From contig JBFMEB010000005.1 of the NCBI GenBank assembly GCA_040753675.1, positions 2,303 through 66,302 of the forward strand: a stretch of 64,000 nt of DNA, written 5' to 3'. A program made the position numbers and the translations under genes. Origin of the DNA: Candidatus Omnitrophota bacterium. GTDB taxonomy: Bacteria; Omnitrophota; Gorgyraeia; JAHJTE01. Numbering within the stretch: the first letter of the stretch is position 1; the number at the start of each line of letters is the position of its first letter. Under the pieces are notes generated by a model. The model ran no database searches and had not been told where the DNA came from. It was given only the letters and a program-made list of their open reading frames with translations. Positions 8,642-26,367 of this stretch are shown here, in pieces.

Positions 8642-9259
8642 ATGCCAAATCCTCCATTAGAATTCTTAAAACCATCTACAGATTTAAGGAATCTTAAATT
8701 ATTGGAAGAAATCTCCAAAGAGGCTAAAATTTCGCAGCGAAAACTCGCCCGTCGCCTCGGAGTGGCCCTGGGAGTTACCAATGCCTGCTTAAAAAAGATG
8801 ATAAAAAAAGGCTTTATAAAAGTCAAAGGCATTAGTAATCGCCGAATTATCTATTATCTTTCGCCCAAAGGCTTTAGCGAAAAAACGCGTCTCACATATT
8901 ACTTCCTCCAACACACAATTTCTTATTATGTAAGTCTTAAAAAGAAGATTTATGAAAAGTTGCGATTGTTAGAGGCCGATAATGTCAAAAGGATTATTTA
9001 TTATGGTGCAGGTGAGGTTATGGAAGTCGCCTTTATTACTTTGCATGAAACTAACCTCGAACTTGTCGGAATAATAGATGATGATGGAGCCAAACATGGC
9101 AAAAAGAAGTTTGGATTTGTTATAAGTGCTCCAGCGATTATAAAGGAACTAAAACCCGATGCTATTTTTATTACCTCTTTAAAATTTAGAGATGAAATCT
9201 TGAATAATCTGGAAAATGACGAGTCGTTAAGGCAAATCAGACGATATTCATTAGATTAA
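8642..9259 (+). CDS. Winged-helix transcriptional regulator fused to a NeuD/PglD-N-terminal-like Rossmann (nucleotide-sugar/CoA-binding-like) domain
   Basis: N-terminal LEEISKEAKISQRKLARRLGVALGVTNACLKKMIKKGF is HTH-like. The C-terminal YYGAGEVMEVAFITL...VGIIDDDGAKHGKKKFGFVISAPAIIKELKPDAIFITS resembles the N-domain of NeuD/PglD/WbaP-type enzymes. Confidence 0.55.
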   Translation: MPNPPLEFLKPSTDLRNLKLLEEISKEAKISQRKLARRLGVALGVTNACLKKMIKKGFIKVKGISNRRIIYYLSPKGFSEKTRLTYYFLQHTISYYVSLKKKIYEKLRLLEADNVKRIIYYGAGEVMEVAFITLHETNLELVGIIDDDGAKHGKKKFGFVISAPAIIKELKPDAIFITSLKFRDEILNNLENDESLRQIRRYSLD

Positions 9260-9293
9260 AATAGTTTCATATAAACGAAAGAGAGATTAAAAA

Positions 9294-10436
9294 ATGAAAA
9301 TTCCTTTAATTGATTTAAAAAAACAATATCGCAGCATTAAAGAAGAAGTAAATGAGGCAGTTCTGCAGGTTTTGGAAAGCGGCTCTTTTATCTTAGGCGA
9401 AAACGCAGAAGCACTAGAGGAAGAATTTGCCTACTTTTGTAAGGTAAAATACGCTGTAGGCGTTGCTTCTGGCACTGATGCTTTGGAGCTATCCTTGAGA
9501 GCTTTAGGCATAGGCCAAGGCGATAAAGTCATTACTACCCCCTTTACATTTATCGCTACCACAGAGGCCATCGGTCAGGTAGGCGCAACGCCAATATTTG
9601 TTGACATCAATCCAGAAACTTATAATATTGATCCTAAAAAAATAACCGAATATTTACTCGGAATTACGAATTTGCAACGTCAAGCCATAAAGGCTATAAT
9701 TCCAGTCCATCTTTATGGCCAACCCTGCGATATGGATAGACTAATTAAAATTGCTAAAGATTATAACTTAAGGATAGTCGAAGACTGTGCCCAAGCTGTT
9801 GGTAGCGAATATAAAGGGGAAAAAGTTGGCTCCTTTGGCGATACGGGTTGTTTTAGCTTTTTCCCAAGTAAAAACTTAGGTGCTTATGGCGACGGCGGCA
9901 TGATAGTTACCAATGACGAAAAAGTTGCCCAACGTTTAAGAATGCTACGTGTTCATGGAAGTAAAGATAAATATCACCACATTAGCGAAGGGCGTAACAG
10001 CCGCCTTGATGAGTTACAGGCAGCCATCTTAAGGGTAAAATTAAGACACTTAAATAACTGGAACGAATCTCGGCGAAAAAATGCAGCTGCCTACAATGAA
10101 AATCTAGGTAAAGAAAACCTTAATGGCAAAGTCATATTGCCAAGGGAACTCATGGGAGCAAAACATACTTACCATCTCTATGTAGTAAGAGTCAAAGATA
10201 GAGATAGACTACGTAATTTTTTAGAATCGAACGATGTCCAGACAGGCGTCCATTATCCTTTACCCCTTCATCTTCAAGAGGTTAATAAGAACTTGGGTTA
10301 TAATAGAGGCGATTTCCCAACAAGTGAACTAATTTCCGATGAAATTATCTCGCTTCCAATGTATCCAGAACTTGATAAAGTAGCAATTAGTTATATTTCA
10401 GATTTAATTTCCAATTTTCTTAAGGAGAGAAGATGA
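9294..10436 (+). CDS. DegT/DnrJ/EryC1 family PLP-dependent nucleotide-sugar aminotransferase (WbpE-like)
   Basis: 380 aa with a sugar-aminotransferase fold and a strong AGGAG-type RBS. Reading it as an aminotransferase depends on the DegT lysine, which I did not locate. Followed by a Gfo oxidoreductase and an acetyltransferase. Confidence 0.85.
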   Translation: MKIPLIDLKKQYRSIKEEVNEAVLQVLESGSFILGENAEALEEEFAYFCKVKYAVGVASGTDALELSLRALGIGQGDKVITTPFTFIATTEAIGQVGATPIFVDINPETYNIDPKKITEYLLGITNLQRQAIKAIIPVHLYGQPCDMDRLIKIAKDYNLRIVEDCAQAVGSEYKGEKVGSFGDTGCFSFFPSKNLGAYGDGGMIVTNDEKVAQRLRMLRVHGSKDKYHHISEGRNSRLDELQAAILRVKLRHLNNWNESRRKNAAAYNENLGKENLNGKVILPRELMGAKHTYHLYVVRVKDRDRLRNFLESNDVQTGVHYPLPLHLQEVNKNLGYNRGDFPTSELISDEIISLPMYPELDKVAISYISDLISNFLKERR

Positions 10437-11440
10437 TTACTTTAGCTCAAATTGGAGCAGGTGATTGGGGTCAGAACCACATCAGGATTTTTTCCGGTCT
10501 GAAGGATTGTTTCTTAAAGGTTTGCTGCGATAAAAGAAAAGATGTCTTGGAGAAGATAGGCACAATTTATAATAAGAGATTAAGATTAACTACAAATTTC
10601 CAAGACATTCTGCAAGATAATGAGATTGAAGCGGTGGTGATAGCAACTTCGGCTCCTACCCATGCCTTTCTGGCTATTGAAGCATTTTCAGCAGGCAAGC
10701 ATGTTTTTATAGAGAAGCCACTGGCCTTAACTTTAGAGGATGGAATAAAGATTCAAGAAGCAGCACAAAGAAATAAACGCATCCTTATGGTTGGCCATCT
10801 GTTACTTTATCACCCGGCAGTTTTAAAACTAAAAAGCTATATTGAAAGCGGCCAGTTAGGTAAAATTCTCTATCTCTATTCTACGCGTGTTAATTTAGGC
10901 AGGATAAGAGAAGAGGAAAGCGCTCTTTGGAGTCTGACCTCTCACGATATCTCTGTGGCCTTATTTCTATTAGATGATATCCCAGAGGAGGTCAGCGCTA
11001 AGGGTGACAGTTACTTAAGGAAGGGGATTGAGGACGTTGTTTTTATGACTCTTAGATTTAAGAATGATATCTTGACTCATATACACGCCAGTTGGCTTGA
11101 TCCGCACAAGATGAGAAAGTTTACTGTGGTAGGTTCTAAGAAGATGGCAGTTTTTGATGATATGCAACCCTCTGAGAAGATACGTATTTATGATAAAGGC
11201 GTTGACCGCAAAGTAGATTATAAGACTTACGCGGAATATTTAGCCCTGCGCGATGGAGATATTAACATTCCTCGCATTGAAATGAAAGAGCCTTTGCAAA
11301 TTGAATGTCAGCATTTTCTGGATTGTATTATGAATAATCATAAACCAATAACCAATGGAGAGAATGGCCTAGAAGTTTTGAAAGTTCTGTCTGCTGCCCA
11401 AAAATCATTAGAGGCAAATGGTGACTCCGTTAAAATTTAA
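10433..11440 (+). CDS. Gfo/Idh/MocA family NAD-dependent nucleotide-sugar oxidoreductase (WbpB/GnnA-like)
   Basis: [17 protein letters not shown]ossmann N-terminus, [11 protein letters not shown] and [11 protein letters not shown] motifs. Confidence 0.85.
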
Positions 11441-12038
11441 TAGAAGGAATAAAACAAGAAATTATTTTGTACATAAGTCTGCATATATAGATGAAGGGGC
11501 TGTTATTGGAAACGATACTAAGATATGGCACTTCAGCCATATTATGAGTGGCGCAAGAATAGGAAAAAAATGTAAACTCGGACAGAATGTTTATATAGGG
11601 CCTAATGTAAAAATAGGCAATAATGTAAAAATACAGAATAATGTGTCGGTTTATCCTGGTGTTACGCTGGAAGACGATGTCTTCTGTGGCCCTTCCACAG
11701 TTTTTACTAATATTATTAATCCGCGTTCAGCTATTAATCGAAACAACGAAGGTTTTTTTTTAAAAACCCTGATTAAAAAAGGCGCAAGTATCGGAGCAAA
11801 TGTGACTATAGTCTGTGGCCATATCATTGGTGAATATGCGTTTATAGGAGCGGGGGCAACGGTTACCAAAGATGTTTTACCATATTCATTAGTTTATGGC
11901 AATCCTGCACGCCATAAAGGCTGGATATGCGAATGCGGCGAAAAATTAGGATTTAATGGAGCAAAAGCTACCTGCCAAGAGTGTAAAAAGCAATATAGAA
12001 AGATAAAGGATAAAGTTAAAAGGATAAAAAAAGCGTAA
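11418..12038 (+). CDS. Hexapeptide-repeat (LbH) sugar N-acetyltransferase, WbpD-like, with C-terminal CxxC...CxxC zinc ribbon
   Basis: Repeating [LIV]GxxxxI hexapeptides ([32 protein letters not shown]) and a C-terminal CECGEK...CQEC. Confidence 0.8.
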
Positions 12039-12079: not shown

Positions 12080-13054
12080 GTGGATTGGTCTAAAAAAGTA
12101 ATTTTGTTAACTGGTGGGACAGGTTCATTTGGGCAGAAATTTACTGAAGTCATGCTTAAAAAATATAGACCCAAAGTTATAAGAATTTTTAGCCGCGATG
12201 AATTGAAACAGTGGGATATGGAGAAAAAGTTTAATAACCATAGACAGTTAAGATTTTTCATTGGCGATGTTCGGGATAAAAATAGATTAGAGCGTGCAAT
12301 GGATGGAACTAATATTGTAGTACACGCTGCTGCCCTAAAGCAAGTACCTTTATGTGAATACAATCCATTTGAGGCAGTGAAAACAAATATTCTTGGTGCT
12401 CAAAATGTTATCGAAGCGGCTATTGATCATAACATAGAAAAAGTTATGGCGATAAGCACAGATAAAGCAGTAAATCCTGTGAATTTATATGGTGCAAGCA
12501 AGATGTGCATGGAAAAACTATTTATTGCTGCAAATGCTTATGTGGGATCTAAAAGAAAGACAAAGATGTCCTCTGCCCGTTATGGGAATGTAATAGGCAG
12601 TAGAGGCAGTATCATTCCATTGCTTAAGGAGCAAAGGTTAAGCGGAACAATTACGATTACGGATAGAAGGATGACACGTTTCTGGATTACGCTTGAACAT
12701 GGCGTAGAATTTGTAATTCAATGCATAGAAAAAATGCATGGAGGCGAGGTATTTGTGCCAAAGGTACCTAGCATGAGGATTATGGATTTAGCAAAGACAA
12801 TCGCTCCAAGATGTAAAATAAAATATATTGGAATACGTCCAGGTGAAAAAATTCATGAATGTCTGCTGACTGAGGATGAGTCGGGGCATGCATTGGAATA
12901 TAAGGATTTATTTGTAATCATACCTGATCATCCATGGTGGTCTTTTGATAATTGGAAGGATGGAAAGAAGCTTTCTCAGGGATTCAAATATACAAGTGAT
13001 TCAAACCCTCACTGGTTAAACGAAAAGGAATTACTCAAGATGATAGAGGAGTAA
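12080..13054 (+). CDS. pseB: UDP-N-acetylglucosamine 4,6-dehydratase (inverting), PseB/FlaA1-type short-chain dehydratase
   Basis: VILLTGGTGSFGQKF, 324 aa, Polysacc_synt_2-like, with catalytic Y..K (YGASKMCMEK). Followed by a pseC-like gene. Confidence 0.82.
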   Translation: MDWSKKVILLTGGTGSFGQKFTEVMLKKYRPKVIRIFSRDELKQWDMEKKFNNHRQLRFFIGDVRDKNRLERAMDGTNIVVHAAALKQVPLCEYNPFEAVKTNILGAQNVIEAAIDHNIEKVMAISTDKAVNPVNLYGASKMCMEKLFIAANAYVGSKRKTKMSSARYGNVIGSRGSIIPLLKEQRLSGTITITDRRMTRFWITLEHGVEFVIQCIEKMHGGEVFVPKVPSMRIMDLAKTIAPRCKIKYIGIRPGEKIHECLLTEDESGHALEYKDLFVIIPDHPWWSFDNWKDGKKLSQGFKYTSDSNPHWLNEKELLKMIEE

Positions 13055-13055: not shown

Positions 13056-14207
13056 GTGAGATTTATACCATATGGTCATCATACAATAGGTAGAGATGAT
13101 ATACGTGCCGTAGTAGATGTATTGAATTCTGATTGGATTACTCAAGGTTCAAAGATAGGAGAATTTGAAGATGCTGTCTGTAAGTATACGGGTGCAAAAT
13201 ATGCGGTAGCAGTAAATTCAGGGACAGCAGCTCTTCATGCAGCCAGTTTTGCTGCCGGTATAAAATGCAAAGATGAAGTTATTACATCTCCAGTAACTTT
13301 TCTGGCTACAGCAAATTGTATAGTTTACCAGAAAGCCAAACCTGTATTTGCAGATATCAATGCCAATAGTTTAAATATAAACCCTGAAGAGATAGAGAGA
13401 AAAATAACTCGTAGGACAAAAGCTATAATCGCCGTTCATTTCGCAGGTTTTCCTTGCAATATGGATAAGATTTTAAGTATTGCAAAGAAGAACCGGCTTA
13501 TTGTTATTGAAGATGCATCACATGCTTTGGGTGCGCAATATAAAGGCAGAAAGATTGGGTCAATTGGCAATATGACTACCTTTAGCTTTCACCCTTTGAA
13601 GTCTATTACTACAGGTGAAGGCGGAATGATATTAACTAACAATAAGAAATTATATACTCGTTTACTCTGTTTTAGAAATCATGGGATAGTAAAGAATAAA
13701 AAGAAGTTGCGCAAGATCGGTCCTTGGTATTATGAGATGCAGAATTTAGGTTATAATTACCGGATTACTGATTTTCAATGCGCATTAGGTATAAACCAAC
13801 TGGCAAAATTAGATAAATTTATTAGAAGGCGCGAAGAGATTGCCATTCGTTATAATGAATTATTTAAAGATATAGATAATTTTATAGAATTTCCTCAAGA
13901 AGTTCCAAATTATATTAAGCATGCCTGGCATCTTTATATTATTCAGTTAAGATTGGATAGGTTAAAAATAAGCAGGAAAAAATTTTTCAATATTTTGCGT
14001 AATAAGAATATTGGAGTTCAGGTGCATTATATCCCGATACACTTACAACCTTTTTATAAAAGAAATTTTGGTTATAAGAAGGGAGATTTTCCTCAGGCAG
14101 AGAGATTTTATGAAAGAGCAATAACTTTACCCATCTTTCCAGCATTGGCAAATAAAGATATAGACAGGATTGCTAAAACAGTTAAGAGTTTGGTGAAAAA
14201 TAGATGA
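13056..14207 (+). CDS. pseC: UDP-4-amino-4,6-dideoxy-N-acetyl-beta-L-altrosamine transaminase (PseC-like DegT aminotransferase)
   Basis: MRFIPYGHHTIGRDDIRAVVDVLNSDWITQG is the characteristic PseC N-terminus. The PLP lysine context is SFHPLKSI. Confidence 0.82.
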   Translation: MRFIPYGHHTIGRDDIRAVVDVLNSDWITQGSKIGEFEDAVCKYTGAKYAVAVNSGTAALHAASFAAGIKCKDEVITSPVTFLATANCIVYQKAKPVFADINANSLNINPEEIERKITRRTKAIIAVHFAGFPCNMDKILSIAKKNRLIVIEDASHALGAQYKGRKIGSIGNMTTFSFHPLKSITTGEGGMILTNNKKLYTRLLCFRNHGIVKNKKKLRKIGPWYYEMQNLGYNYRITDFQCALGINQLAKLDKFIRRREEIAIRYNELFKDIDNFIEFPQEVPNYIKHAWHLYIIQLRLDRLKISRKKFFNILRNKNIGVQVHYIPIHLQPFYKRNFGYKKGDFPQAERFYERAITLPIFPALANKDIDRIAKTVKSLVKNR

Positions 14208-15190
14208 GAGTATTAGTAATCGGTTGCGGATCAATAGGAGAAAGGCACATACAGAATTTAAGAAAATTAAAGATAGGGGAGATTTTAATATCCGACATAG
14301 ATAAGAAGAGACTTCTTTATGTATCAAGAAAATATAAAATTAGCCTCATATTTAATAATTTTAAGGATGCTTTAGAGAAAAAGCCTGATGCGGCAATAAT
14401 CTCTACGCCTCCCAATTCACACATCCCCATAGGGCTGGCAGTAGTTAATAGTGGGGTCCATGCTTTTATCGAAAAACCTCTTTCGGATAGACTAAAAGGA
14501 ATAGATGAATTTATTAAGGAATCAAAAAAGACAAAATTAGTAATTTTTATTGGGTATAATTTACGTTTTCATCCCGGCCTGCAGTTAGTTAGAAAAATCT
14601 TAACTAAAGGAACTATCGGCCGTATCCTTTGCGCCAGGGCAGAATTTGGGCAAAATCTTACCCAATGGAGACCTAATCAGGATTACCGGCGCAGTTATAG
14701 CGCTAAAAAAGCAATGGGCGGAGGGATTATTCTCGAATCTTCCCATGAATTAGATTATCTTTCTTGGCTAATCGGAGATATAAAAAATATTAATTGCTTT
14801 GCCAAAAAGGTTAGTACCTTAGAGGTAGATACTGAGGATACTGCCCAGATTCTGTTAGAGTTTAAGAGCGGTGTCATTGCCCAGGTTCATCTTGATTTTA
14901 TTCGCTATGATTATTCCCGTAATTGCGAGCTGATAGGAGACAAGGGGACGATAATCTGGGATTATTCCAAAAGTCAAGTCAAAGTCTATATTGCGGATAA
15001 AAAAAAATGGAAAATATTTAATGTAAACTTCAAACCGAATAATATGTATCTTGAAGAGTTGAGACATTTTATCAACTGCATCTTAAAAAAACAAAGGCCT
15101 TTAATTAGCGCAGAGGAAGGCAGAAAGATATTGAGAGTAGCTTTGGCAGCAAAAAGGTCTGCAAAAACGGGCAAAAAGGTCTCATTATGA
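14204..15190 (+). CDS. Gfo/Idh/MocA family oxidoreductase
   Basis: MRVLVIGCGSIGERH Rossmann, EKPLSD motif. 328 aa. Confidence 0.8.
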   Translation: MRVLVIGCGSIGERHIQNLRKLKIGEILISDIDKKRLLYVSRKYKISLIFNNFKDALEKKPDAAIISTPPNSHIPIGLAVVNSGVHAFIEKPLSDRLKGIDEFIKESKKTKLVIFIGYNLRFHPGLQLVRKILTKGTIGRILCARAEFGQNLTQWRPNQDYRRSYSAKKAMGGGIILESSHELDYLSWLIGDIKNINCFAKKVSTLEVDTEDTAQILLEFKSGVIAQVHLDFIRYDYSRNCELIGDKGTIIWDYSKSQVKVYIADKKKWKIFNVNFKPNNMYLEELRHFINCILKKQRPLISAEEGRKILRVALAAKRSAKTGKKVSL

Positions 15191-17244
15191 GAAAAGTCAT
15201 AGCAATAATCCAGGCAAGGATGGGTTCAAGCAGACTTGCGAATAAGGTATTAAAAGATATATCTGGTAAACCTATGCTCTGGCATGTAGTTGAGCGTACG
15301 CAGAGAGCAAAATCTGTTAACTTGGTTGTTTTAGCCACTTCTACCAATGTTTTAGATGACCCAATAGAGGAATTTGCCAAGAAGAACAACTTAAATATTT
15401 TTCGCGGATCGGAAGAAGACGTCTTGGATAGATATTACCGGGCTGCAAAAAAATTCAAGGCCGATATAGTTGTAAGGATTACAGGTGATTGTCCGCTAAT
15501 TCCTCCCGAAATCATTGATAAGGTAGTTAGGACTTTTCTTAAGGGCAAGTGCGACTTTGTTACTAATACAATCATCTACACCTATCCAGATGGTTGCGAC
15601 GTAGAAGTTTTTTCTTTTAAAGCACTTCTAAAATCTTGGAAAGAGTCTAGTGAGCCAATCGAGAGGGAACACGTTTCAGTCTATATTAGAAATTCTAATA
15701 GGTTTAAAATGAAAAACGTCAGGGATGAAACTTCGCTTGCTTCTGGAGCATACCATTGGTCTGTTGATAGAATTGAAGACTTGAAGTTTGTTAGAGAAGT
15801 ATATAAGCATTTATATAAAGATGGCAGGATATTTTCTTATGAAGATATCATTGATTTATTAAGACGACACCCTGAGATTAAAGAGATAAATAAGCAGGCA
15901 ATATCAAATGAGGGATATTATAGGAGTTTATTGAAGACACCTAAAATTAAACCAAAAAAAATAGCAATTAAAAAATCACTTTTGTTGAAAGATAAAGCAC
16001 GGAAGTTGATTCCCGGATGTAGCCAGACATTCAGTAAGGGCCCGTCTCAATTCGTGCAAGGGATCGCTCCTGTTTTTTTAGAAGATGCCAAAGGTTGTCG
16101 TGTTCGGGATGTTGATGGTAATGAATATATCGACTATGCTATGGCTCTCGGTCCGGTAGTTTTAGGTTACAACTATCCTTCCGTATCTGAGGCGGTTAAA
16201 AAGACTTTGGAAAAAGGCACTACTTTCACTCTGCCAAATAGATTAGAGGTGGAATTATCTGAAATTTTATGCGAGATAATTCCCTGCGCACAAATGGTCC
16301 GTTTTGGCAAGAATGGATCAGATGTAACTTCCGGTGCGGTTAGAGTTGCACGCGCCTACACAGGTAAGGATAAAGTTGCCTGCTGCGGCTATCACGGTTG
16401 GCAGGACTGGTATATTGCGACTACATCCAGAGATAGAGGCATTCCCGAAGCAGTGAAAAACTTAAGCTTAACCTTTGAATATAATAAAATCGAAACCTTA
16501 GAAAAAGTTTTTGCGCAAAATTTGAATCAGATTGCCTGCGTAATTATGGAACCTGTTGGAGTTATTGAGCCGAAAGATAATTTCTTAGAGAAGGTCAAGG
16601 AACTAACCCATAAAAATGGTTCAATATTGATATTTGATGAGGTTATTAGCGGATTCCGTTTCGCATTAGGTGGTGCAGGAGAATATTTTAATGTGATTCC
16701 TGACTTGGCGTGTTTTGGTAAGGCGATGGGGAACGGTTTTCCCATATCAGCGGTTGTAGGTAAAAAAGAGATTATGAAATTATTTGAAGAGGTATTTTAC
16801 TCTTTTACCTTTGGGGGTGAAATCGTTTCTATCGCTGCTGCTATAGCAACAATTAAAGAGCTAAGAAAAAAAAGTGTTATAAGATATCTTTGGAGTCAAG
16901 GAAGAAAAATAAAAGACGGATTCAATGTTTTGGTAAAAGAGTACAGTTTAGAAAATCACATGCAATGTAGAGGACTCCCCCCCAGAACCGTAATTACATT
17001 CAAAGACGAGAAAGGCGACGATGGTCTATTGTTAAAAAGTTTATTTCAACAAGAATGCATAGACAGAGGAATCCTCTTTACCTCTGCGCATAATATCTGT
17101 TTTAGCCATTCAGATAAAGATATTGATTATACCTTGCGAGTTTATAATACAGTTTTAGAAATAATTAAAGGAGCCGTTCTTAGGGGCAGAGTCAAAAAGA
17201 TGCTTAAAGGCGAGATGCTTAAGCCTATATTTAGAAAAGTCTGA
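15187..17244 (+). CDS. pseF: Fusion protein: N-terminal acylneuraminate/pseudaminate cytidylyltransferase (PseF/NeuA-like, CMP-sugar synthase) plus C-terminal class-III (GSA-aminomutase/HemL-like) PLP aminotransferase
   Basis: N-terminal VIAIIQARMGSSRLANKVLKDISGKPML (CTP_transf_3 signature) for about 230 aa, then a linker. Residues about 270-685 show an aminotransferase class III pattern (GYHGWQDWY, FDEVISGFR, ACFGKAMGNGFP with the PLP Lys). Confidence 0.8.
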   Translation: MRKVIAIIQARMGSSRLANKVLKDISGKPMLWHVVERTQRAKSVNLVVLATSTNVLDDPIEEFAKKNNLNIFRGSEEDVLDRYYRAAKKFKADIVVRITGDCPLIPPEIIDKVVRTFLKGKCDFVTNTIIYTYPDGCDVEVFSFKALLKSWKESSEPIEREHVSVYIRNSNRFKMKNVRDETSLASGAYHWSVDRIEDLKFVREVYKHLYKDGRIFSYEDIIDLLRRHPEIKEINKQAISNEGYYRSLLKTPKIKPKKIAIKKSLLLKDKARKLIPGCSQTFSKGPSQFVQGIAPVFLEDAKGCRVRDVDGNEYIDYAMALGPVVLGYNYPSVSEAVKKTLEKGTTFTLPNRLEVELSEILCEIIPCAQMVRFGKNGSDVTSGAVRVARAYTGKDKVACCGYHGWQDWYIATTSRDRGIPEAVKNLSLTFEYNKIETLEKVFAQNLNQIACVIMEPVGVIEPKDNFLEKVKELTHKNGSILIFDEVISGFRFALGGAGEYFNVIPDLACFGKAMGNGFPISAVVGKKEIMKLFEEVFYSFTFGGEIVSIAAAIATIKELRKKSVIRYLWSQGRKIKDGFNVLVKEYSLENHMQCRGLPPRTVITFKDEKGDDGLLLKSLFQQECIDRGILFTSAHNICFSHSDKDIDYTLRVYNTVLEIIKGAVLRGRVKKMLKGEMLKPIFRKV

Positions 17245-17980: not shown

Positions 17981-18427
17981 ATGAAAAAAATGTTGGTTCT
18001 TAATGGGCCAAATCTTAACATGTTCGGTAAGCGGGATCCCTCGTACTACGGTACCATCACCTTAAAGGAAATTAATGAGAAGATCGAGGAATTAGCCCTG
18101 GAACTCGGGTTTGCGGTAGAATGCTTCCAAACAAACCATGAGGGGATAATGGTGGAAAAAATACACGGGATCCGAGAAGAAGATGTTGATGCCCTGATTA
18201 TCAATGCTGGGGCGTGGACCCATTACAGCTACGCCATCATGGATGCTTTGGCTATCATTAAAGTGCCGATCATCGAGGTGCATATGTCTAATATTCACAC
18301 TAGGGAGGTATTTCGGCATTATTCAGTAATTGCGCCGCTGGCGAAGGGGCAAATCACTGGATTCGGGCTGAACAGTTATCTATTGGGCTTGAGAGCTGCA
18401 TGGGATTTGATCAAAGATAATAAATAG
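17981..18427 (+). CDS. aroQ: Type II 3-dehydroquinate dehydratase
   Basis: MLVLNGPNLNMFGKRDP...HMSNIHTRE, canonical type II DHQase, 148 aa. Confidence 0.9.
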   Translation: MKKMLVLNGPNLNMFGKRDPSYYGTITLKEINEKIEELALELGFAVECFQTNHEGIMVEKIHGIREEDVDALIINAGAWTHYSYAIMDALAIIKVPIIEVHMSNIHTREVFRHYSVIAPLAKGQITGFGLNSYLLGLRAAWDLIKDNK

Positions 18428-18490: not shown

Positions 18491-19513
18491 ATGAATATCT
18501 TAATTTACGGTGCCGGTGCAATTGGATGTCACATTGCGTATTGTATGTATGTAACACGACATACTCCATATCTTATTGCGAGAGGGCAGCATTATGAGCA
18601 AATGAAAAAATATGGCATGCACATCAAGATATGTGATAATGAAATATTAAAGGATGAAAAATTTATCAAGGAAGATTCTAGGTTTTATATTGTAAACGAT
18701 GTGAACAAAGTAAAAGATACCAAAATGGACTATATTTTCATAACCGTCAAATTGAACGATTACAATGACAAAACACTCCAGGATCTATATCCATTTATGG
18801 GGAAAGACACAGCTGTTATTCCTCCTTGCACAGAACTTCCTTTCTGGTGGTTTTATGATCTTAATGGAAAATCTAATGAGAAATACAAAGATATTGATTT
18901 CAACCCAGAGGTAAGTAGGTATTTCATTAGAGAGAATATTATCGGCATGACCATGTGGCTATCCTCTGTTATAGAGAGTCCGGGCCACGTATGCGTTAAA
19001 CATGTCCAGAGAGGCTATCCATTGAAAGAACTATATCCGAATATGAAAGAGCGCGCAGAAAAGCTGAGAAGTATTTTTCAGATAACCTGTATGTCACCCG
19101 TTGTGGATAATATCAGAAGCGAAATCTTCATTAAATCCATAAATGCATTTGCTTTTAACTTAGTTGCTTTAGATAGGGAATGCGATAATGTACAATTAAG
19201 TCATGACAAATATGGCCAAGATTGTATCCGAAAGATTATGATAGAAGGCGAGCAGATCCTTCGAATCCTAAATATCCCAGTTATCCAAGAAATTGAGGAT
19301 AGAATTACTCAGACTTTATCCAGTACGAAACATACGATGAGTATGCTTCATGACTACAGGATGGGTAAGCAGATTGAATTAAGTGCTCTGTGGCAGAGCT
19401 TCGATAGTTTTTGCAAGATCTTGGGAATAAATATGGGATATTCTAGAGATATGTATGAAAAGGTAATGGCGAAGATTAGTGCGAAAAAACACGCAACAGT
19501 GTTAAAGAGATGA
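18491..19513 (+). CDS. Ketopantoate reductase (ApbA/PanE) family NAD(P)-dependent 2-ketoacid/hydroxyacid reductase-like protein
   Basis: MNILIYGAGAIGCHIA Rossmann typical of the ApbA family. 340 aa with a C-terminal helical domain. Confidence 0.6.
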   Translation: MNILIYGAGAIGCHIAYCMYVTRHTPYLIARGQHYEQMKKYGMHIKICDNEILKDEKFIKEDSRFYIVNDVNKVKDTKMDYIFITVKLNDYNDKTLQDLYPFMGKDTAVIPPCTELPFWWFYDLNGKSNEKYKDIDFNPEVSRYFIRENIIGMTMWLSSVIESPGHVCVKHVQRGYPLKELYPNMKERAEKLRSIFQITCMSPVVDNIRSEIFIKSINAFAFNLVALDRECDNVQLSHDKYGQDCIRKIMIEGEQILRILNIPVIQEIEDRITQTLSSTKHTMSMLHDYRMGKQIELSALWQSFDSFCKILGINMGYSRDMYEKVMAKISAKKHATVLKR

Positions 19514-19530: not shown

Positions 19531-21111
19531 ATGGATATCATTCATTATCTTATTAATAATGTAGAGCGGTTTGCGGATAAAACTGCCATCATTTTTGCTG
19601 ATACCTTCTTATCTTACTCTGAATTTGCTGAAAAAACGCGCAGGCTAGCCGGCACCTTGAGCACAATAGGTGTCAGGAAAGGAACTCACATAGGCCTGCT
19701 TCTAAATAATTCTGTAGAGTTCGCAATAACCATGTTTGCTGCTGCTGATTTGGGCGCAACCATAGTGCCCATGGTTACTACTTTGGGTGATAACGATCTA
19801 CTTACAGCGATAAATTTCACCGATGTCGATTTTATTATTGGGTGGCATACCACCCTAAAGGATGTGTTCTATAGATTGCAGGGTAATTTTCCGCTTTCGC
19901 GTCAACATTGCATTTCTGTTGGCGCAGAGATTGACGGATGTAGGGCATTTAGCGAGATGTTGAACGCTCAGCTGCCAGCTTATGAATTGGGACGTAGGAT
20001 GATTGATGAGGAGACGGATTTTATTCTGACCATGACTTCAGGATCGACCAGTGCTCCTAAGCCTATAGTTTTTACACAAGGCACAAAAATCCGAAGGAGC
20101 TTGGGAGCGCAGGAACTATATAATATCACCGATAACGATGTCACGCTTGTTGGTACTCCTATGTACCATTCCCTTGCTCAACGGCTTGTTTTAATGCCGA
20201 TTATTACCGGAGGAACTTGTGTAATTATGCAGAAATTCACTCCTAATAATTGGCTCACCCACGTCAATAAGCATAAGGTTACTTTCAGCATTGCAGTTTC
20301 CTCCCAATTGGAAATGATATTGCAGGATTTAAAGGAGACAGAGGCTGATTTAAGCTCTTTGCGGTGTATTGTTTCCTGCTGTGCATTGTTAAAAAATGAC
20401 ATTAAATCGCGTTTAATCAAGGAATTAAAATGCCATTTTCACGAGTGTTACGGTACTTCTGAAGTTGGAGTTGTATCTAATCTGGCTCCCGAAGACTCGT
20501 CTAAGAAACTGTCTAGTGTCGGCAAGGCAGCTCCTGGTGTCGAGCTCAAGATCGTTGACGCAAAAGGAAAGCCAGTTGTCAGAGGGGAGATTGGCGAGAT
20601 TACCTGCAAAACGCCAATGCGCTTTTCCCGTTACTACAAGAATGAACAAGCTACCCAAGAGAGTATGGTAGATGGTTTCTTTTGCACTGGGGATATGGGA
20701 TATTTAGATGAGGACAATTACCTTGTTTTTTCTGGCCGCAAGAAAGAGATCATAATCACCGGTGGCATCAATGTCTATCCAACGGATGTTGAAGCTGTCT
20801 TGAATGAGCATCCAAAGGTCAAAGAGTGTGCGGTGATCGGGGTTGAAGATAGAAGGTTCGGGGAAGCCGTCCTGGCGCTGATCATTCCCAGAGAAGGCGA
20901 ACCACTCACCAGCCGCGAACTGCAACGTCACTGCATGTATCGCTTGGCCGACTTTCAGCAACCAATGAGTTACGAGTTTGTTAAAACACTTCCCAGAAAC
21001 GAATTAGGAAAACCTCTCAAACGCAAACTTAAAGAGCAGTTTCAAGGTTATGATGTAAGTGCGGCAGTAAGAAGAATAATGAGTAAGCCTAAGGAAAAAT
21101 ATGGAGAATAA
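19531..21111 (+). CDS. AMP-dependent synthetase/ligase (acyl-AMP / acyl-CoA or acyl-ACP ligase, ANL superfamily)
   Basis: AMP-binding core TSGSTSAPKP, YGTSE and a GDMGYLDEDNYLVFSGRKKE hinge, with a catalytic K in LGKPLKRKL. 526 aa. Confidence 0.85.
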   Translation: MDIIHYLINNVERFADKTAIIFADTFLSYSEFAEKTRRLAGTLSTIGVRKGTHIGLLLNNSVEFAITMFAAADLGATIVPMVTTLGDNDLLTAINFTDVDFIIGWHTTLKDVFYRLQGNFPLSRQHCISVGAEIDGCRAFSEMLNAQLPAYELGRRMIDEETDFILTMTSGSTSAPKPIVFTQGTKIRRSLGAQELYNITDNDVTLVGTPMYHSLAQRLVLMPIITGGTCVIMQKFTPNNWLTHVNKHKVTFSIAVSSQLEMILQDLKETEADLSSLRCIVSCCALLKNDIKSRLIKELKCHFHECYGTSEVGVVSNLAPEDSSKKLSSVGKAAPGVELKIVDAKGKPVVRGEIGEITCKTPMRFSRYYKNEQATQESMVDGFFCTGDMGYLDEDNYLVFSGRKKEIIITGGINVYPTDVEAVLNEHPKVKECAVIGVEDRRFGEAVLALIIPREGEPLTSRELQRHCMYRLADFQQPMSYEFVKTLPRNELGKPLKRKLKEQFQGYDVSAAVRRIMSKPKEKYGE

Positions 21112-22147
21112 AGAACATCATATAGTCATCTCTGTAATTATCCCTATGTACAACATTCAACGCTATATAACTACGTCTTTAAATAGATTAAAATCTCAAA
21201 CCCTATCTCAATATCTTTTTGAGGTAGTTTTGGTTGACGACTCCTCAACAGACGATACTTTTATTATTGCAAAAAGTTTTAGGGGAATAAGAAATTTAAC
21301 AGTAGATAAACTTAAAAAAAACTCAGGGCCGGGCATTGCCAGAAATAGGGGAATTGAGTTAGCAAAAGGAGACTATATACTTTTTCTTGATGGCGATGAT
21401 TATCTTTTAGAGTCTTCTTTAGAAAAGATATTTACCATAATCAATAACCATGACATCGATGTAGTCACTTTTAATTGGACGTATTACAAAGATTTAATAG
21501 AGCAGAATCCAATACCCAGAAGAAGAGATTTAGATGATATGCCTATGGATAGATTTTATTTAACAAAACACTATTTAGGAATGAATATGGATGGCTCTGT
21601 GATTTATACTTTAGTAAAGAAATCTGTATTAGTTAAGAATAACATCAAATTCCCAGCAGGTTTTCATGAAGACATGTCAATTATTTTTCAAATATATTAT
21701 TCTGCCAGAAACATATTAAAGCTAAATGAGATTATCTATATAAAAAGAGATAGGCCTGACTCAATTAATCACACTTTTAGCAAAAAGCATGTCTATGACT
21801 ATCTCAGTGCCTGGCCAAAAATAATGGATTTTTTAATAAAAAAAGAAGGCAGTAGTGCCAAGCATAAATATAGGCAAGACTACTTAAGAGGCATATCAGG
21901 ATTAGTGGCTACGTTGATTAGGAAAAATTTAAATATAAATTCTAAAAATTTTAATAAAAGATTAGAATTATATAAATGTATAGTAAAAAGCTTAAAAGCC
22001 AATAAATATTTAGCCGATATTAAAATGCTTCCCAACATAACAAAAAAAGACAAAATTACGCAACTATTTTTGAGATCAATGTTAGCAAAAGATCTTCCAA
22101 TTGAAAAAAAAGTAGAGTTTTTTGAGGAATGCGGTCTTAACAAATAA
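21101..22147 (+). CDS. Glycosyltransferase family 2
   Basis: ISVIIPMYNIQRY..., DDSSTD and FLDGDD (DxD) motifs. Confidence 0.85.
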   Translation: MENKEHHIVISVIIPMYNIQRYITTSLNRLKSQTLSQYLFEVVLVDDSSTDDTFIIAKSFRGIRNLTVDKLKKNSGPGIARNRGIELAKGDYILFLDGDDYLLESSLEKIFTIINNHDIDVVTFNWTYYKDLIEQNPIPRRRDLDDMPMDRFYLTKHYLGMNMDGSVIYTLVKKSVLVKNNIKFPAGFHEDMSIIFQIYYSARNILKLNEIIYIKRDRPDSINHTFSKKHVYDYLSAWPKIMDFLIKKEGSSAKHKYRQDYLRGISGLVATLIRKNLNINSKNFNKRLELYKCIVKSLKANKYLADIKMLPNITKKDKITQLFLRSMLAKDLPIEKKVEFFEECGLNK

Positions 22148-22204: not shown

Positions 22205-23464
22205 ATGAAAAAGAGTTGGAGCTGCAGTGGTTTACACTACTCAATCTTTGCCGCTCCTGATGTTTTAAGGCATTGTTGTAAAAGATTTTTTGTAAATGGC
22301 CAAATGAGAGGGGATGTAGAGATATTTAAGGTTTTTTCTAACTCGGATATAAGCACTAAAAAAATTTTAGAGCATAAGCAAAAACTATATGAAGATATCA
22401 ATAGCGGCAAAGAAACTCCTTGTAGTAGTTGCCCTTGGATAAAATACGATGATTGGGAGCCGTTTAATAAACTTAAAATAAAGCATCTATCTATAGAAAA
22501 TCACACTGTATGCAATCTAAGATGTACCTACTGCAATGAGACATATTACGGAGGTAAAAAATCTAACTATGATATTATGCATTTATATAAGGAGTTAAAA
22601 TTAAAAGATGCTTTTGATGAAAATATTTCTCTGGTGTGGGGTGGAGGCGAACCGCTTTTATTAAATTCTTTTTATGAAATTTTTTCAACATTAACTCAAG
22701 AGCTTGCCCCATCTCGTAATAACATCTTTACAAATGCCATTATATACAGTGATAGTGTTGCAAAGTATCTAAAAGAGGGCAAAGTTACCATTACAACAAG
22801 TATTGATGCAGGATTTAGGAGTACCTACAATAAAATTAGAGGCTCTGATAAATTAATTACAGTACTGCAAAACTTAAAAAAGTATTATCAATGTGATAAA
22901 GATGGAATTACTGTTAAATATTTACTACTACAAGAAAATAGCAATGAAGATGAAGTTTTAGCTTTTGTAGATAAAATAAAAGAATATGGGCTTAGTGGAT
23001 GTACTTTTCAAATAAGCACGAACTATAAAACCGAACGAATTGATGAAAAAATAGCCAGAACATCAATTTTTCTTTTTAATGAGTTAAAAAAATGTGGTAC
23101 TAAACTCATAAATTTCGATGATCATTTAAGGCCAAGGCTTAATTCAATGAGAGATAGTTTGAATATAAAGAGTAGTTACTCAGATAAAGACGTCATAATC
23201 TGGGGGGCGGGTGATTATGCAGAAATGATGTTAAAAGAGAGCAGCTTCTTTAATAATAGAAATATTAGATGCTTCGTAGATAGTAGTAGACAAAAGCATG
23301 GTAAAAAGTTTGGGCCTTACGAGATAAAGCCACCTAAAGCTGTTTTAGAGAATGAAGATACCTACATATTTATAGCCTCGACAAGCTATTACAGGCAAAT
23401 ATATAGCCAAATCTTAGATATGGGGGTTTCACCAAAAAGAATTATTGACGATGTTGTTATCTAA
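22205..23464 (+). CDS. Radical SAM enzyme (non-B12) with N-terminal Cys-rich segment and C-terminal NeuD/PglD-N-like Rossmann domain
   Basis: CNLRCTYCNE (CxxxCxxC), GGGEPLL glycine-rich SAM motif, N-terminal CSGLH...HCCKRFF...CSSCPW, and a C-terminal IIWGAGDYAEMML...RCFVDSSRQKHGKKFGPYEI...YIFIAS resembling the C-terminus of the regulator at 8642. Confidence 0.78.
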   Translation: MKKSWSCSGLHYSIFAAPDVLRHCCKRFFVNGQMRGDVEIFKVFSNSDISTKKILEHKQKLYEDINSGKETPCSSCPWIKYDDWEPFNKLKIKHLSIENHTVCNLRCTYCNETYYGGKKSNYDIMHLYKELKLKDAFDENISLVWGGGEPLLLNSFYEIFSTLTQELAPSRNNIFTNAIIYSDSVAKYLKEGKVTITTSIDAGFRSTYNKIRGSDKLITVLQNLKKYYQCDKDGITVKYLLLQENSNEDEVLAFVDKIKEYGLSGCTFQISTNYKTERIDEKIARTSIFLFNELKKCGTKLINFDDHLRPRLNSMRDSLNIKSSYSDKDVIIWGAGDYAEMMLKESSFFNNRNIRCFVDSSRQKHGKKFGPYEIKPPKAVLENEDTYIFIASTSYYRQIYSQILDMGVSPKRIIDDVVI

Positions 23465-24961
23465 TAAACATTTTTTAATTATAACTCCTTTGAGGACGGC
23501 TTCGTTGCCATTGGAACCTGCCTTGGGTCCTCTAAGCCTTTATTCATTTGCGGTAAAAAATGGTTTTGATGGTGACTTGCTGGATTTTAACACGATAATT
23601 AGCGAAGAGAATATTCGAGACTACGACGATATTGTAAATACTTCACTCCAGCAATGGCTCAATTCTCATCCAGAGGCAAAAATCGTTGGCATAACTGTAC
23701 TCTTTTCTGGGGTTTTTAGAAGAGCACTTAAAATTGCGAAAGTTGTAAAGAAGATACGCAGTGATGTTTCTGTGGTGATCGGCGGCAACCACCCATCTAT
23801 ATTTCCTAAAGAAATAATAGAAAACTGTCCAGAAATAGACTATGTAGTTATTGGGGAAGGTGAAGAACAATTTTTGAATCTGCTCAAGTTGCACTCACAA
23901 GGGTCTGTTTCTAAAGCCAATCTTGATATAGACAATGGCATTGCCTATAGGTCTGACGGTAAAGTTGTCGTAAAAGAGAAAATACGCTATATATACGATT
24001 TGGGCTCACTAGGTATAACAAATTATGTTCAAGTTAACTTTGCAAAATATCATACTCCAGATATGGATACATGGTATAACCCAAAGAAGCACGACATCAT
24101 ATGCGCAATGCCCATAACTACATCTAGAGCATGTCCCTATAGTTGCAGCTTTTGCAGTATGTATAGAGTAATGGGACGCAAATTTCGTTCCAGACCTGTT
24201 GAGGTTGTGCTGGAAGAATTGAAAATTTTGTATTATGAGCACAATATTAGATATTTTAGAATCATGGATGACTGTTCTACTTTTGACAAGAAAAATTCGA
24301 TGAAGCTGTTTCTTGAGATTGCTAAGAGTGATATGGATTTGTCTTTCGAATTTTATAACGGTTTAAGCATCAGAACACTCGACAATGAACTGATCGATAT
24401 CCTTGTGGAAAATGGCTTAGTGCGAGGAAGTCTACCCATTGAAAGCGGCTCGGAATTTCTTAGAAATAAGATTATGAATAAAAATCTTCCTGAAGATAAA
24501 ATTTATGAAGTATATAAATATTTTGAAAAAAACATCCCCACATATGGCTTATTGGATTTTTTTTGATAGGTCTTCCTGAAGAAACTGTTGAGACATTAGA
24601 GGATACTATTAACATGATCAAAAACTTAAAGACTATTTATCCTATTTTTAATATCCTTGTTCCTTTTCCAGGAACAAGGCTTTGGGAACAGTGCGTTAGA
24701 GATAACTTGCTGCTGATGGATATTAAAGATGTCTGGAAATACCCTTTTTGGGCACATCCGACCACTATTGACAGAGCAGAGAAAGATAGAGGCGAATGGT
24801 GCTCTGAAACTTTTGTCAAAAATGAGCAGGCTTTCCTAATCCAGCCTTACAACCTGAGTTTAGAGCAGCTTGCGTATTATTACAAAAAGCTACTCAATCT
24901 AAGAGCTGAATCATGGCAAAGAATTGAGCAACGGAAGCAACTTCAAGCCAAAATTCGTTGA
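23445..24961 (+). pseudogene. B12-binding radical SAM enzyme interrupted by a frameshift in a T8 homopolymer (two ORFs, 23445-24566 and 24563-24961)
   Basis: The first ORF has a B12-binding domain plus the rSAM motif ITTSRACPYSCSFC and ends LLDFF* inside tttttttt (24557-24564). The second ORF continues with IGLPEETVETLEDTINMIK, the FMIGLPxET region conserved in class-B rSAMs. A +1 T would fuse them as ...LLDFFLIGLPEE. Confidence 0.75.
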
Positions 24962-24972
24962 GAGGTAATGTT

Positions 24973-26085
24973 ATGATTAATAATCCACTACAACTCGCGT
25001 TTATCGGAGGAGGGATAGGCTCTATCGCCGGAACGCCACATTTTGCTGCTGCTTCCATGGATGCTAGATTTAAACTGATCGCCGGAGCGTTTAGCTTAGA
25101 TACGCAAACAAACCTTCAATCGGCTGCAAGATGGGGGATAAAACGATACTATGATTCCTGGCGGGATTTGATTAAAAAAGAAAAAAATAATATCGACGCT
25201 GTCGTTATTCTGACCCCTACTCCGATTCATTCTGATATGATATGTGCTTTATTGGAGCAAAACACCCCCATCATCAGTGAAAAAGCAGTTGTCCAGACAA
25301 TGGAGGAGATTCAAAAACTAAAAAAAATCTATAATCCCAAGGATCACTTTTTGACTGTAATATACAACTATAGCGGCTATCCGCTTATCAGGGAATTAAA
25401 ACAGAGGATTTCCAATGGTGAGCTTGGTAAAATTATCAATATTCGCTTGGAAATGCCCCAAGAGTCTTTTCTAAGGTCCCCCGTCAGCACAAAATACCCT
25501 CAAGATTGGAGACTGCAAGACAAATATATCCCGACAATCTGTCTTGATTTAGGTGTGCATTTACACCAATTGGCTTTCTTTTTAACAGAGATGGAACCCT
25601 GTTCACTTTTTTCAACAATGAAAAACTTTTCAAAGTATTCCGTTATAGACGATGTTGAAATACAACTAAAATACGATAATGGAGCTTCAGGAAATTTTTG
25701 GATGAGCAAGACAGCCATTGGTCACAGAAATGGACTTAGAGTACGTATTTATGGAAAAAAAGCATCAGCACAGTGGTATCAGGCCGAACCAGAAACTATG
25801 GTTTTAAGTTATGTCAATGGAGAAAAAAAGATAATTGAACGCGGCGGCGATAATTTTATTTGCAATAAAAAAAGATACAATAGGATGGTTCCTGGTCATC
25901 CGGCTGGATTTATCGAAGCCTTTGCAAATATATATAGTGATATCGCTGATGCTCTTACAGCGTTTAAAAATAAGAAAAATTATAAAAATCAATATGTTTT
26001 CGATCTCGAGCTGGCAGAAAGAGGATTAAATCTCTTTCACAGAGCCAGAGAATCACATGAACAGAAATGCTGGCTATCGATCTAA
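24973..26085 (+). CDS. Gfo/Idh/MocA family oxidoreductase
   Basis: LQLAFIGGGIGSIAGTPHF Rossmann. The ATG at 24973 is preceded by AGAGG, while the ORF-track start at 24958 is a TTG. Confidence 0.8.
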   Translation: MINNPLQLAFIGGGIGSIAGTPHFAAASMDARFKLIAGAFSLDTQTNLQSAARWGIKRYYDSWRDLIKKEKNNIDAVVILTPTPIHSDMICALLEQNTPIISEKAVVQTMEEIQKLKKIYNPKDHFLTVIYNYSGYPLIRELKQRISNGELGKIINIRLEMPQESFLRSPVSTKYPQDWRLQDKYIPTICLDLGVHLHQLAFFLTEMEPCSLFSTMKNFSKYSVIDDVEIQLKYDNGASGNFWMSKTAIGHRNGLRVRIYGKKASAQWYQAEPETMVLSYVNGEKKIIERGGDNFICNKKRYNRMVPGHPAGFIEAFANIYSDIADALTAFKNKKNYKNQYVFDLELAERGLNLFHRARESHEQKCWLSI

Positions 26086-26100: not shown

Positions 26101-26367
26101 ATGAACCCGCTGGAGGAAAGGATATACATATTCATAGTGGATTATCTAAGCAATATTTCGTCTATACCGTATCAAGATAAAAAAAGTATATTACAATACA
26201 GGTATTTGGATGTTGGGCATATTGATTCATTTGGCATTATAAACTTTATTATTACTCTGGAGGATAAGTTTGGTATTTCCTTGACAGCGCAAGATACAGA
26301 GTCGGATGAATTCAGAAGCATCGCAGGTCTCATAAAAACCATTACCAAAAAGCTTGAGAAAAGATGA
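26101..26367 (+). CDS. Acyl carrier protein-like (phosphopantetheine attachment Ser in GHIDSFGIINF)
   Basis: 88 aa, acidic with a four-helix pattern and a DSxx(I/L) motif. Sits next to an acyltransferase-like gene, with the AMP-ligase upstream. Confidence 0.65.
   Translation: MNPLEERIYIFIVDYLSNISSIPYQDKKSILQYRYLDVGHIDSFGIINFIITLEDKFGISLTAQDTESDEFRSIAGLIKTITKKLEKR

Follow-up and report, generated by a model that had tools for sequence, protein, structure and literature searches.

The stretch of DNA analysed here (the window; 64,000 nucleotides of contig JBFMEB010000005.1, positions 2,303 to 66,302, assembly GCA_040753675.1) comes from a Candidatus Omnitrophota bacterium and carries the genes of a carboxylic acid adenylating enzyme of the ANL superfamily (hereafter the ligase) and of a small acyl carrier protein (ACP). 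Housekeeping genes (trpGDC, prfA, prmC and murA) occupy the initial 7 kb of the window and give way to a glycan locus exceeding 55 kb, in which nearly all long open reading frames (ORFs) lie on the + strand. Both the ligase and the carrier gene fall within the section of this one-strand locus that is devoted to pseudaminic acid (Pse). Pse and legionaminic acid (Leg) are nonulosonic acids (NulOs), which are nine-carbon sugars resembling sialic acid. The cassette under study is bracketed by PseB and PseC on one side and by PseG- and PseI-like genes on the other, and its principal features, with lengths in amino acids (aa), are as follows:

12080-13054, + strand: PseB (passes NCBIfam equivalog TIGR03589, 489 bits, cut-off 408)
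13056-14207, + strand: PseC (passes NCBIfam equivalog TIGR03588, 494 bits, cut-off 424)
19531-21111, + strand: the ligase, an ANL-superfamily carboxylic acid adenylating enzyme of 526 aa (by Pfam and motifs), proposed to be an acyl-ACP synthetase
24958-26085, + strand: GFO/IDH/MocA oxidoreductase (GFO, by Pfam), third member of the conserved core
26101-26367, + strand: the ACP, a discrete carrier protein of 88 aa with a GHIDSFG motif, Ser43 being the predicted phosphopantetheine site
26364-28217, + strand: AAC(3)-like N-acyltransferase (residues ~7-245) fused to a DUF4910/DUF2172 M28-like domain, 617 aa
28214-30613, + strand: divergent PseG-like, PseI/NeuB-like and PseH-like genes (starts at 28214, 29139 and 30146)

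From PseC to the PseG-like gene the order is a first GFO, a fusion of a CMP-transferase with a class-III aminotransferase, a methyltransferase, AroQ, an ApbA-like gene, the ligase, a GT2 glycosyltransferase, a radical SAM enzyme, a B12-binding radical SAM enzyme, a second GFO, the ACP and the AAC(3)-like/DUF4910 fusion. PseB and PseC plausibly carry out the initial two steps of Pse synthesis and would define the acceptor sugar. For the PseG-, PseH- and PseI-like proteins the Pse models are likewise the best NCBIfam matches, below cut-off in each case (127 bits against 154, 51 against 93 and 305 against 340, respectively), as expected if these late Pse enzymes acted on altered substrates. The stop codon of the ACP overlaps the start of the N-acyltransferase fusion, and this overlap together with the PseB and PseC equivalogs makes plausible the Pse-type amino sugar that an earlier annotation of the same sequence (the first-pass annotation) had named as the acceptor.

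The ligase matches Pfam AMP-binding (PF00501, 8.3e-66, residues 10-369) and AMP-binding_C (PF13193, 6.4e-17, residues 420-494), and its core ANL motifs are intact (TSGSTSAPK, YGTSE, TGD, GRKKE and the C-terminal LGK lysine). Across 48 orthologues T169-K177, E305-E311, D388 and K494 are invariant and R403 is nearly so. By domain and by motif alike we therefore assign the protein to the ANL superfamily, in line with the public record (MEW6008464.1), where it is described as a "class I adenylate-forming enzyme family protein". The orthologue family, taken as the best 120 of 1,235 matches (43-89% identity), is almost entirely metagenomic. None of the NCBIfam cut-offs is reached by the ligase: the best model, PRK06187, gives 377 bits against 476 and carries the name long-chain-fatty-acid--CoA ligase, while the FadD equivalog models give 211-273 bits against cut-offs of 650-875. 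Judged by these scores, which lie below every FadD or FACS cut-off, and by a genomic context other than lipid metabolism, the enzyme falls outside the housekeeping acyl-CoA synthetases. Its closest solved relatives are fatty-acyl- and feruloyl-CoA (coenzyme A) synthetases and MenE (~1e-55 against the PDB), with oxalyl- and malonyl-CoA synthetases about equal. A substrate call from NCBIfam or PDB likeness proved uninformative, fatty-acyl, feruloyl, OSB, oxalyl and malonyl ligases being about equally near. The A4 motif, YHSLAQR, is of the acyl-CoA-synthetase type and not of the FDxS type, the hallmark of amino-acid-activating domains.

The ACP is deposited as a "hypothetical protein" (MEW6008470.1) and its orthologues have no precomputed Pfam domain. 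As a single sequence it stays under the curated cut-offs, with 17.6 bits against 20.8 for Pfam PP-binding (PF00550) and 25.7 against 68 for the best NCBIfam model, DltC. The annotation is thus explained by a divergent subfamily that current PP-binding models score below cut-off. A profile built from 8 orthologues matches solved peptidyl carrier protein, ACP and DltC chains with E values of 2e-8 to 1e-5, and Ser43 is invariant across 26 non-redundant orthologues. In the AlphaFold model (predicted local distance difference test 94.4) helix II spans residues 43-57 and begins at Ser43. Among the top 50 Foldseek PDB matches listed for this model, essentially all are carriers or carrier-containing complexes (TM-score 0.51-0.74), led by PltL, DltC and ACPs at 0.6-0.74. 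The conserved Ser and the predicted four-helix fold identify the 88-aa ORF as a genuine carrier protein. Taken together, the Pfam matches, motifs, Ser43, carrier fold and surrounding Pse genes bear out the first-pass annotation in its basic claim of an ANL adenylating enzyme and a small carrier with a Ser in a DSFG context inside a sugar locus.

Linkage of the two genes was assessed in 32 loci with a ligase sharing 35% identity or more with that of the window (family loci; contexts from exact look-up, a genome scan and a metagenome scan) and in 135 control loci (1.96 Mb) around generic ANL enzymes that are at most 33% identical. The genome scan used peptide patterns from the single ligase and mostly caught generic ANL enzymes, which became the controls; only L004-L006 were relevant. 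Neighbours were scored by tblastn with window proteins as queries, an ACP counting only if it lay no more than 5 kb from the ligase:

ACP homologue within 5 kb: family 25/32, controls 0/135
GFO oxidoreductase: family 25/32, controls 0/135
NeuB: family 14/32, controls 0/135
PseC/DegT: family 18/32, controls 0/135
GT2 glycosyltransferase: family 10/32, controls 0/135
Radical SAM enzyme with PglD_N-like domain: family 9/32, controls 0/135

In six of the seven family loci without a tblastn match to the ACP the contig stops no more than ~1.3 kb from the ligase; in the remaining one, L105, reading revealed a divergent ACP (LLDSFE) two genes upstream. The ACP is thus present in all family loci with enough flank (26/26; 25 by tblastn plus L105), and in 9 loci the ACP match begins 31-95 bp past the end of the ligase match. 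The pairing is seen in Omnitrophota, Magnetococcus, a Methylococcaceae metagenome-assembled genome (MAG), the cultured Paenibacillus azoreducens KCTC 3829 (L004), Halothermothrix and a Peptococcaceae MAG. Family loci are NeuB plus PseB/PseC or Leg-type settings, several of them beside flagellin or Maf genes. Identity matrices of ligase and ACP are correlated (Mantel r=0.73, p<=0.0005), as are those of ligase and GFO (r=0.64). Given this linkage and co-divergence, ligase, ACP and GFO form a co-inherited module specific to nonulosonic-acid loci, and it is very probable that ligase and ACP act together, as had been claimed from the window alone. In Magnetococcus sp. MYC-9 (L003, 2118-4915) the orthologous cassette is broken into by three opposite-strand genes, encoding a gluconolactonase-like protein, a 6-phosphogluconate-dehydrogenase and a gluconate/shikimate-kinase-like P-loop kinase.

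The controls also bear on the simplest alternative, a housekeeping fatty-acid CoA ligase that landed in the locus by chance beside a small ORF that is not a functional carrier. The name of the best NCBIfam model and the sub-threshold Pfam score of the ACP on its own would suit it, yet all NCBIfam scores of the ligase are under cut-off, fold and Ser of the ACP are conserved, and cassette or NulO genes occur in 0/135 generic ANL loci, so that this explanation is effectively refuted by the present evidence.

A different division of labour is conceivable, in which the ligase works as a normal acyl-CoA synthetase and feeds the AAC(3)-like transferase while the ACP, loaded by some other enzyme, serves elsewhere, for example as a scaffold for radical-SAM or GFO tailoring. 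This would accord with the nearest characterised relatives of the ligase, which are CoA ligases, and with the homology of the transferase to AAC(3) enzymes, for which acetyl-CoA is the cofactor. We consider it unlikely: the ligase-ACP linkage is universal across phyla, often at 31-95 bp, and the two proteins co-diverge; the cassette has no FabD-, FabH- or FkbH-like ACP loader, and the FkbH protein found further along the window has an ACP of its own. Moreover, the ACP is most like the type II carriers PltL and DltC, which are loaded by stand-alone adenylating enzymes. We therefore favour a dedicated acyl-ACP synthetase/carrier pair that forms, with the GFO, the core of a NulO-tailoring cassette whose product would be an N-acyl Pse, and we give this reading a probability of roughly 0.6.

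The genes that accompany the core in the window are the following:

15187-17244: CMP-sugar cytidylyltransferase (PseF/NeuA-like) fused to a class-III (glutamate-1-semialdehyde aminomutase-like) aminotransferase
17981-18427, + strand: type II 3-dehydroquinate dehydratase (AroQ; TIGR01088 188 bits, cut-off 170), a lineage-restricted accessory
18491-19513, + strand: ApbA/PanE-like NAD(P)H oxidoreductase (Pfam ApbA, ApbA_C), directly upstream of the ligase
21101-22147, + strand: GT2 glycosyltransferase (Pfam), travelling with the cassette
22205-23464, + strand: radical SAM enzyme with a C-terminal PglD_N/C2185-like domain (Pfam)
23445-24961, + strand: B12-binding radical SAM enzyme, split into ORFs of 373 and 132 aa by a frameshift in an A7 tract (24526-24532)
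30649-32013, + strand: stand-alone DUF4910/DUF2172/M28-like protein of the Cj1295 / CA_C2195 family (DUF4910 1.7e-63, DUF2172 3e-27)

How the acid would reach the sugar is suggested by the genes downstream of the ACP. The 26364-28217 fusion matches Pfam Antibiotic_NAT (3e-31) and DUF4910 (5e-19) and the PDB entries 7lap (AAC(3), 1e-8) and 3k9t (1e-18). The order of ACP followed by NAT/DUF4910 is also found in L001, L087, L088 and the P0009 contig, and the stand-alone DUF4910 gene after it recurs in the closest relatives (L001, L087). The proteins Cj1295 and CA_C2195 belong to the DUF4910/DUF2172 family (PMC3068675, PMC4000134). In C. jejuni, Cj1295 is required for 5-N-(2,3-di-O-methylglyceroyl)-Pse, and removal of the N5-acetyl group is the role its authors proposed for it (PMC3068675); the neighbourhood of CA_C2195 contains an N-acetyltransferase, an ACP and Maf (PMC4000134). 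A deacetylase domain of another kind occurs in Leg-type loci: in the flagellin island L085 (10001-12610) a CE4 polysaccharide-deacetylase domain is fused to the N-terminus of the ligase, giving a protein of 869 aa, and in L086 a separate CE4 gene (9084-10010) precedes the ligase, its annotated end overlapping the ligase start. These two types of deacetylase-like domain, attached to ligase or transferase, point to an amine that would be freed and then re-acylated. A PseH-like GNAT is retained, and therefore one N-acetyl group is probably kept and only the other exchanged for the special acyl group.

Where the AAC(3)/DUF4910 fusion is lacking, a conserved protein of ~345-380 aa accompanies the module (L085 15262-16350, L086 13149-14186, L097 2758-3792, L004 7469-8560 and L006 7146-8285). 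This protein has no match in Pfam, NCBIfam or PDB sequences and is a candidate for an alternative acyltransferase.

Such variation in the transferase beside the ACP could also be read in another way, with the ACP-bound acid serving as a scaffold that is glycosylated by the GT2 enzyme or elaborated according to the logic of mitomycin MitE/MmcB/MitB, or with the acid becoming an O-linked substituent or a small molecule in its own right. The GT2 gene and the radical SAM gene with its PglD_N-like domain are found with the cassette in roughly one locus in three, and GFO plus shikimate-type genes (see below) recall aminoshikimate pathways (RifL/RifJ). The cassette, however, always lies within NulO operons, often between PseC and PseG/PseI, the gene with the N-acyltransferase domain overlaps that of the ACP, and the deacetylase-like domains are fused to ligase or transferase, all of which makes this scheme improbable in comparison with N-acylation of a NulO by way of the ligase and ACP.

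As for the acid itself, the A4 motif and the neighbouring genes provide two leads for an acid without an alpha-amino group: a 2-hydroxy acid, or a cyclitol or aryl carboxylate derived from the shikimate pathway. The first lead comes from the ApbA-like gene, which lies immediately 5' of the ligase in eight loci (L001, L002, L084, L087, L102, L103, L168 and the P0009 contig). Its product would, to judge from its family, convert a keto acid to a hydroxy acid; it is only a distant member, every NCBIfam 2-dehydropantoate reductase match being below cut-off. Reactions of the ApbA/PanE type yield pantoate (2,4-dihydroxy-3,3-dimethylbutanoate), which resembles the tetronate of V. cholerae. The second lead starts from AroQ. 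L168 and L169 keep the order GFO-AroQ-ApbA-ligase, with AroQ 86% and ligase 72% identical to those of the window, showing that the AroQ-ApbA-ligase triad persists despite a different upstream gene; by tblastn across the 32 family loci, AroQ was found only in the window, L168 and L169. A DAHP_synth_1-family gene lies beside ligase, ACP and GFO in 4/32 family loci against 1/135 controls, and one further locus holds an AroE-like gene:

L006, 11763-12602: class I-beta DAHP synthase
L089, 9794-10603: class I-beta DAHP synthase
L097, 6780-7628: class I-beta DAHP synthase
L100, ~4942: class I-beta DAHP synthase
L084, 6885-7721: AroE-like dehydrogenase

The copies in L006, L089 and L097 reach 424-441 bits on the DAHP synthase model (cut-off 335), and that in L100 is assigned from 75% tblastn identity only. 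The possibility that these neighbours are KDO8P synthases was rejected, as KdsA models stay well under cut-off while DAHP synthase models are passed. An EPSP-synthase-family gene of the window (3235-4521) was also considered as AroA, in which case aroQ would have been part of an aromatic-amino-acid cluster; that gene is MurA. By these assignments three shikimate-pathway enzymes (DAHP synthase, AroQ and AroE-like) appear to have been recruited independently into the cassette. The conserved GFO (24958-26085) has 3v5n as its best PDB match (2e-50), with scyllo- and myo-inositol dehydrogenases as more distant matches; it belongs to the inositol-dehydrogenase family, and members of this family act on cyclitols. 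The recruitment of three pathway enzymes and this conserved partner are the grounds for a bolder, tentative scheme, in which the cassette would link a shikimate-derived carbocyclic or aryl acid, tailored on the ACP, to Pse or Leg through an amide bond. The acid could be a cyclitol carboxylate of the shikimate or quinate type or a hydroxybenzoate derived from dehydroshikimate, and the AsbF/AsbC precedent ties 3-dehydroshikimate to an ANL/carrier pair. We regard a shikimate origin of the acid as possible and on balance rather unlikely, and the full scheme likewise as a minority prospect.

From the gene identities, motifs, carrier fold and genomic coupling we infer a course for direct ACP loading, transfer and acceptor position. 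An acid without an alpha-amino group would be made or trimmed by the ApbA-like reductase, with a contribution from AroQ in the lineage of the window. The ligase would adenylate this acid and attach it as a thioester to the phosphopantetheine arm on Ser43 of the ACP, where the GFO oxidoreductase and the radical-SAM enzymes may tailor it. The fused and stand-alone DUF4910 domains may then free an amine by taking off an N-acetyl group, and the AAC(3)-like domain of 26364-28217 would move the acid onto this amino group of Pse or of its UDP-sugar precursor. The outcome would be a Pse with an unusual acid in place of the usual N-acetyl.

Several observations weigh against this proposal. We infer loading of the ACP by the ligase from gene linkage only, and the closest characterised relatives of the ligase all make CoA thioesters. 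Solved AAC(3) enzymes use acetyl-CoA and not acyl-ACP, and the transferase differs among loci, being the NAT/DUF4910 fusion here and possibly the 345-380 aa protein elsewhere. The window ORFs scanned include no ACPS- or Sfp-type phosphopantetheinyl transferase gene. The B12 radical SAM gene of the cassette is frameshifted in this assembly; a tract of A8 at 24526-24532 would bring back ...YFEKKHPH..., the reading of the unsplit L001 orthologue (495 aa), and the A7 variant may reflect an error of assembly, heterogeneity in the population or phase variation. Similar tracts switch Cj1295 and Cj1296/7 of C. jejuni and wbeL of V. cholerae. Shikimate genes are present in a minority of loci and none is within reach in the closest relatives L001, L087 and L088, so that the shikimate link is a lead rather than a conclusion. 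Finally, the conserved residues of the DUF4910 domain match no known peptidase active site (PMC4000134), which renders a deacetylase role for this domain speculative.

The first-pass annotation had likened the locus to RfbK, RfbL, RfbM and RfbN of V. cholerae O1. The tetronate set of that organism includes LuxC/LuxE-like and iron-alcohol-dehydrogenase genes. A Pfam screen of the window, made on + strand ORFs of at least 100 aa, shows no LuxC/LuxE-like or iron-alcohol-dehydrogenase gene, and the conserved third partner is a GFO instead. The comparison accordingly stands as an analogy and fails as a match of gene sets. Both the Wbe/Rfb genes of V. cholerae and the flagellin-island sets of Aeromonas and Enterobacteriaceae combine an AMP-forming ligase with a dedicated ACP in an amino-sugar or NulO locus (PMC7874193, PMC4875605), presumably for the same purpose of adding a non-acetyl acyl substituent. 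By gene content the window cassette differs from them in lacking LuxC/LuxE, FabG and iron-alcohol-dehydrogenase partners and in having GFO, ApbA-like, radical-SAM and AAC(3)/DUF4910 genes; its acceptor would be Pse, whereas that of V. cholerae is perosamine. For a true homologue of RfbK-L-M-N-O (Wbe) installing 3-deoxy-L-glycero-tetronate (2,4-dihydroxybutyrate) one can cite the AMP-ligase-like enzyme and ACP found within an amino-sugar locus in both systems, the need for wbeL and downstream genes in synthesis of the tetronate carried by perosamine (PMC3441752), and an ApbA-like 2-oxo-acid reductase that could in principle yield such a 2-hydroxy acid. The missing genes, the GFO as conserved partner, the different acceptor and the different content of RfbKLMN-like flagellin-island sets (ACP, CaiC, LuxE, LuxC, FabG; PMC4875605, PMC7874193) leave this identity very unlikely, well behind the NulO-tailoring cassette with its own ligase and carrier.

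Closer in its proposed outcome is the Cj1295 region of C. jejuni NCTC 11168, which resembles the window, as does CA_C2195 of C. acetobutylicum, in placing a DUF4910/DUF2172 protein by an amino-sugar N-acetyltransferase and an ACP within a Pse locus (PMC3068675, PMC4000134). The C. jejuni genes, with Cj1296/7 as the N-acetyltransferase, modify the glycan of flagellin. In C. jejuni an N-acetyl of Pse is swapped for another acid (PMC3068675), and the likeness is drawn from protein family and gene neighbourhood. In the window, by contrast, N-acyltransferase and DUF4910 domain are fused, and the acid would come through ANL ligase, ACP and GFO and not through an FkbH/HAD-type loader. An FkbH protein is nevertheless encoded further along the locus:

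45713-47587, + strand: FkbH-domain protein (TIGR01686 283 bits, cut-off 147)
47580-47825, + strand: ACP of the FkbH module, 81 aa, with an EEWDSL motif (Pfam PP-binding 21.6 bits, cut-off 20.8)

These belong to a second, self-contained carrier module (43952-47825) of a GNAT, a MaoC dehydratase, an SDR, the FkbH-domain protein and the 81-aa ACP, so that the locus has two acyl-carrier routes, each independent of the other. FkbH had been suggested as one source of the donor acid. It was ruled out: the module has its own ACP, lies ~20 kb away, and tblastn found no FkbH homologue in any related ligase locus. The other suggested source, the adjoining reductase and aroQ genes, gains from their linkage to the ligase in other genomes.

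The common logic of adenylating an acid, loading it on a small type II carrier and transferring it is also that of AsbC/AsbD/AsbE, which put 3,4-dihydroxybenzoate onto spermidine, and similarly of DltA/DltC; the butirosin trio BtrJ/BtrI/BtrH uses an ATP-grasp loader. The likeness to the Asb and Dlt trios is one of description only, and the window, in which no AsbE, AsbF or BtrH homologue was identified, differs from all of these systems in its proposed acceptor, a nonulosonic acid. A further parallel is an ACS-like enzyme of Rhodobacteria, which we take to acylate the carrier AcpR. This ACS-annotated enzyme likewise co-occurs with a dedicated ACP, that of serine palmitoyltransferase, and differs in belonging to a sphingolipid pathway (PMC9386255).

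The fusion of cytidylyltransferase and aminotransferase at 15187-17244, whose two parts are separate adjoining genes in L001, suggests an extra amino group in the product. The region just upstream of PseB (9294-12038) codes for an aminotransferase (DegT), a GFO oxidoreductase and an acetyltransferase of the hexapeptide type, a trio resembling a WbpB/WbpE/WbpD-type route that would lead to a diacetamido sugar. By analogy with PglD_N, we assume that the PglD_N-like domain of the 22205-23464 enzyme may bind a nucleotide-sugar. Six B12-binding radical SAM genes lie in the glycan locus (23445-24961, 35936-37420, 39812-41224, 51271-52686, 52693-54114 and 54145-55572), an unusually heavy investment that probably serves C-methylation or other radical tailoring of sugars.

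In the literature we found nothing that describes a ligase-ACP-GFO cassette or a link between shikimate and NulOs. The general logic, in which an ANL enzyme, a carrier and a transferase decorate an amino sugar, is known; the composition of the module, the membership of its families and the possible class of substrate are new. To our knowledge a shikimate-derived amide on a nonulosonic acid has not been described before, and if the shikimate scheme were true, such amides would be an undescribed class of NulO decoration spread over many phyla, flagellins included.

The N-acyl groups of NulOs on flagella, capsules and lipopolysaccharide are their main variation, and they affect motility, the adsorption of phages and recognition by the immune system. 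The enzymes that supply the acid are known for a minority of the non-acetyl groups, and the module, which is real, conserved and biochemically uncharacterised, offers a concrete and testable route to unusual N-acyl NulOs. Its ANL ligase family, divergent ACP and GFO make up a portable unit, which occurs in Pse and Leg loci of organisms ranging from Omnitrophota to Firmicutes and Proteobacteria. It can thus serve as a genomic marker for such sugars, with at least one cultured carrier, Paenibacillus azoreducens.

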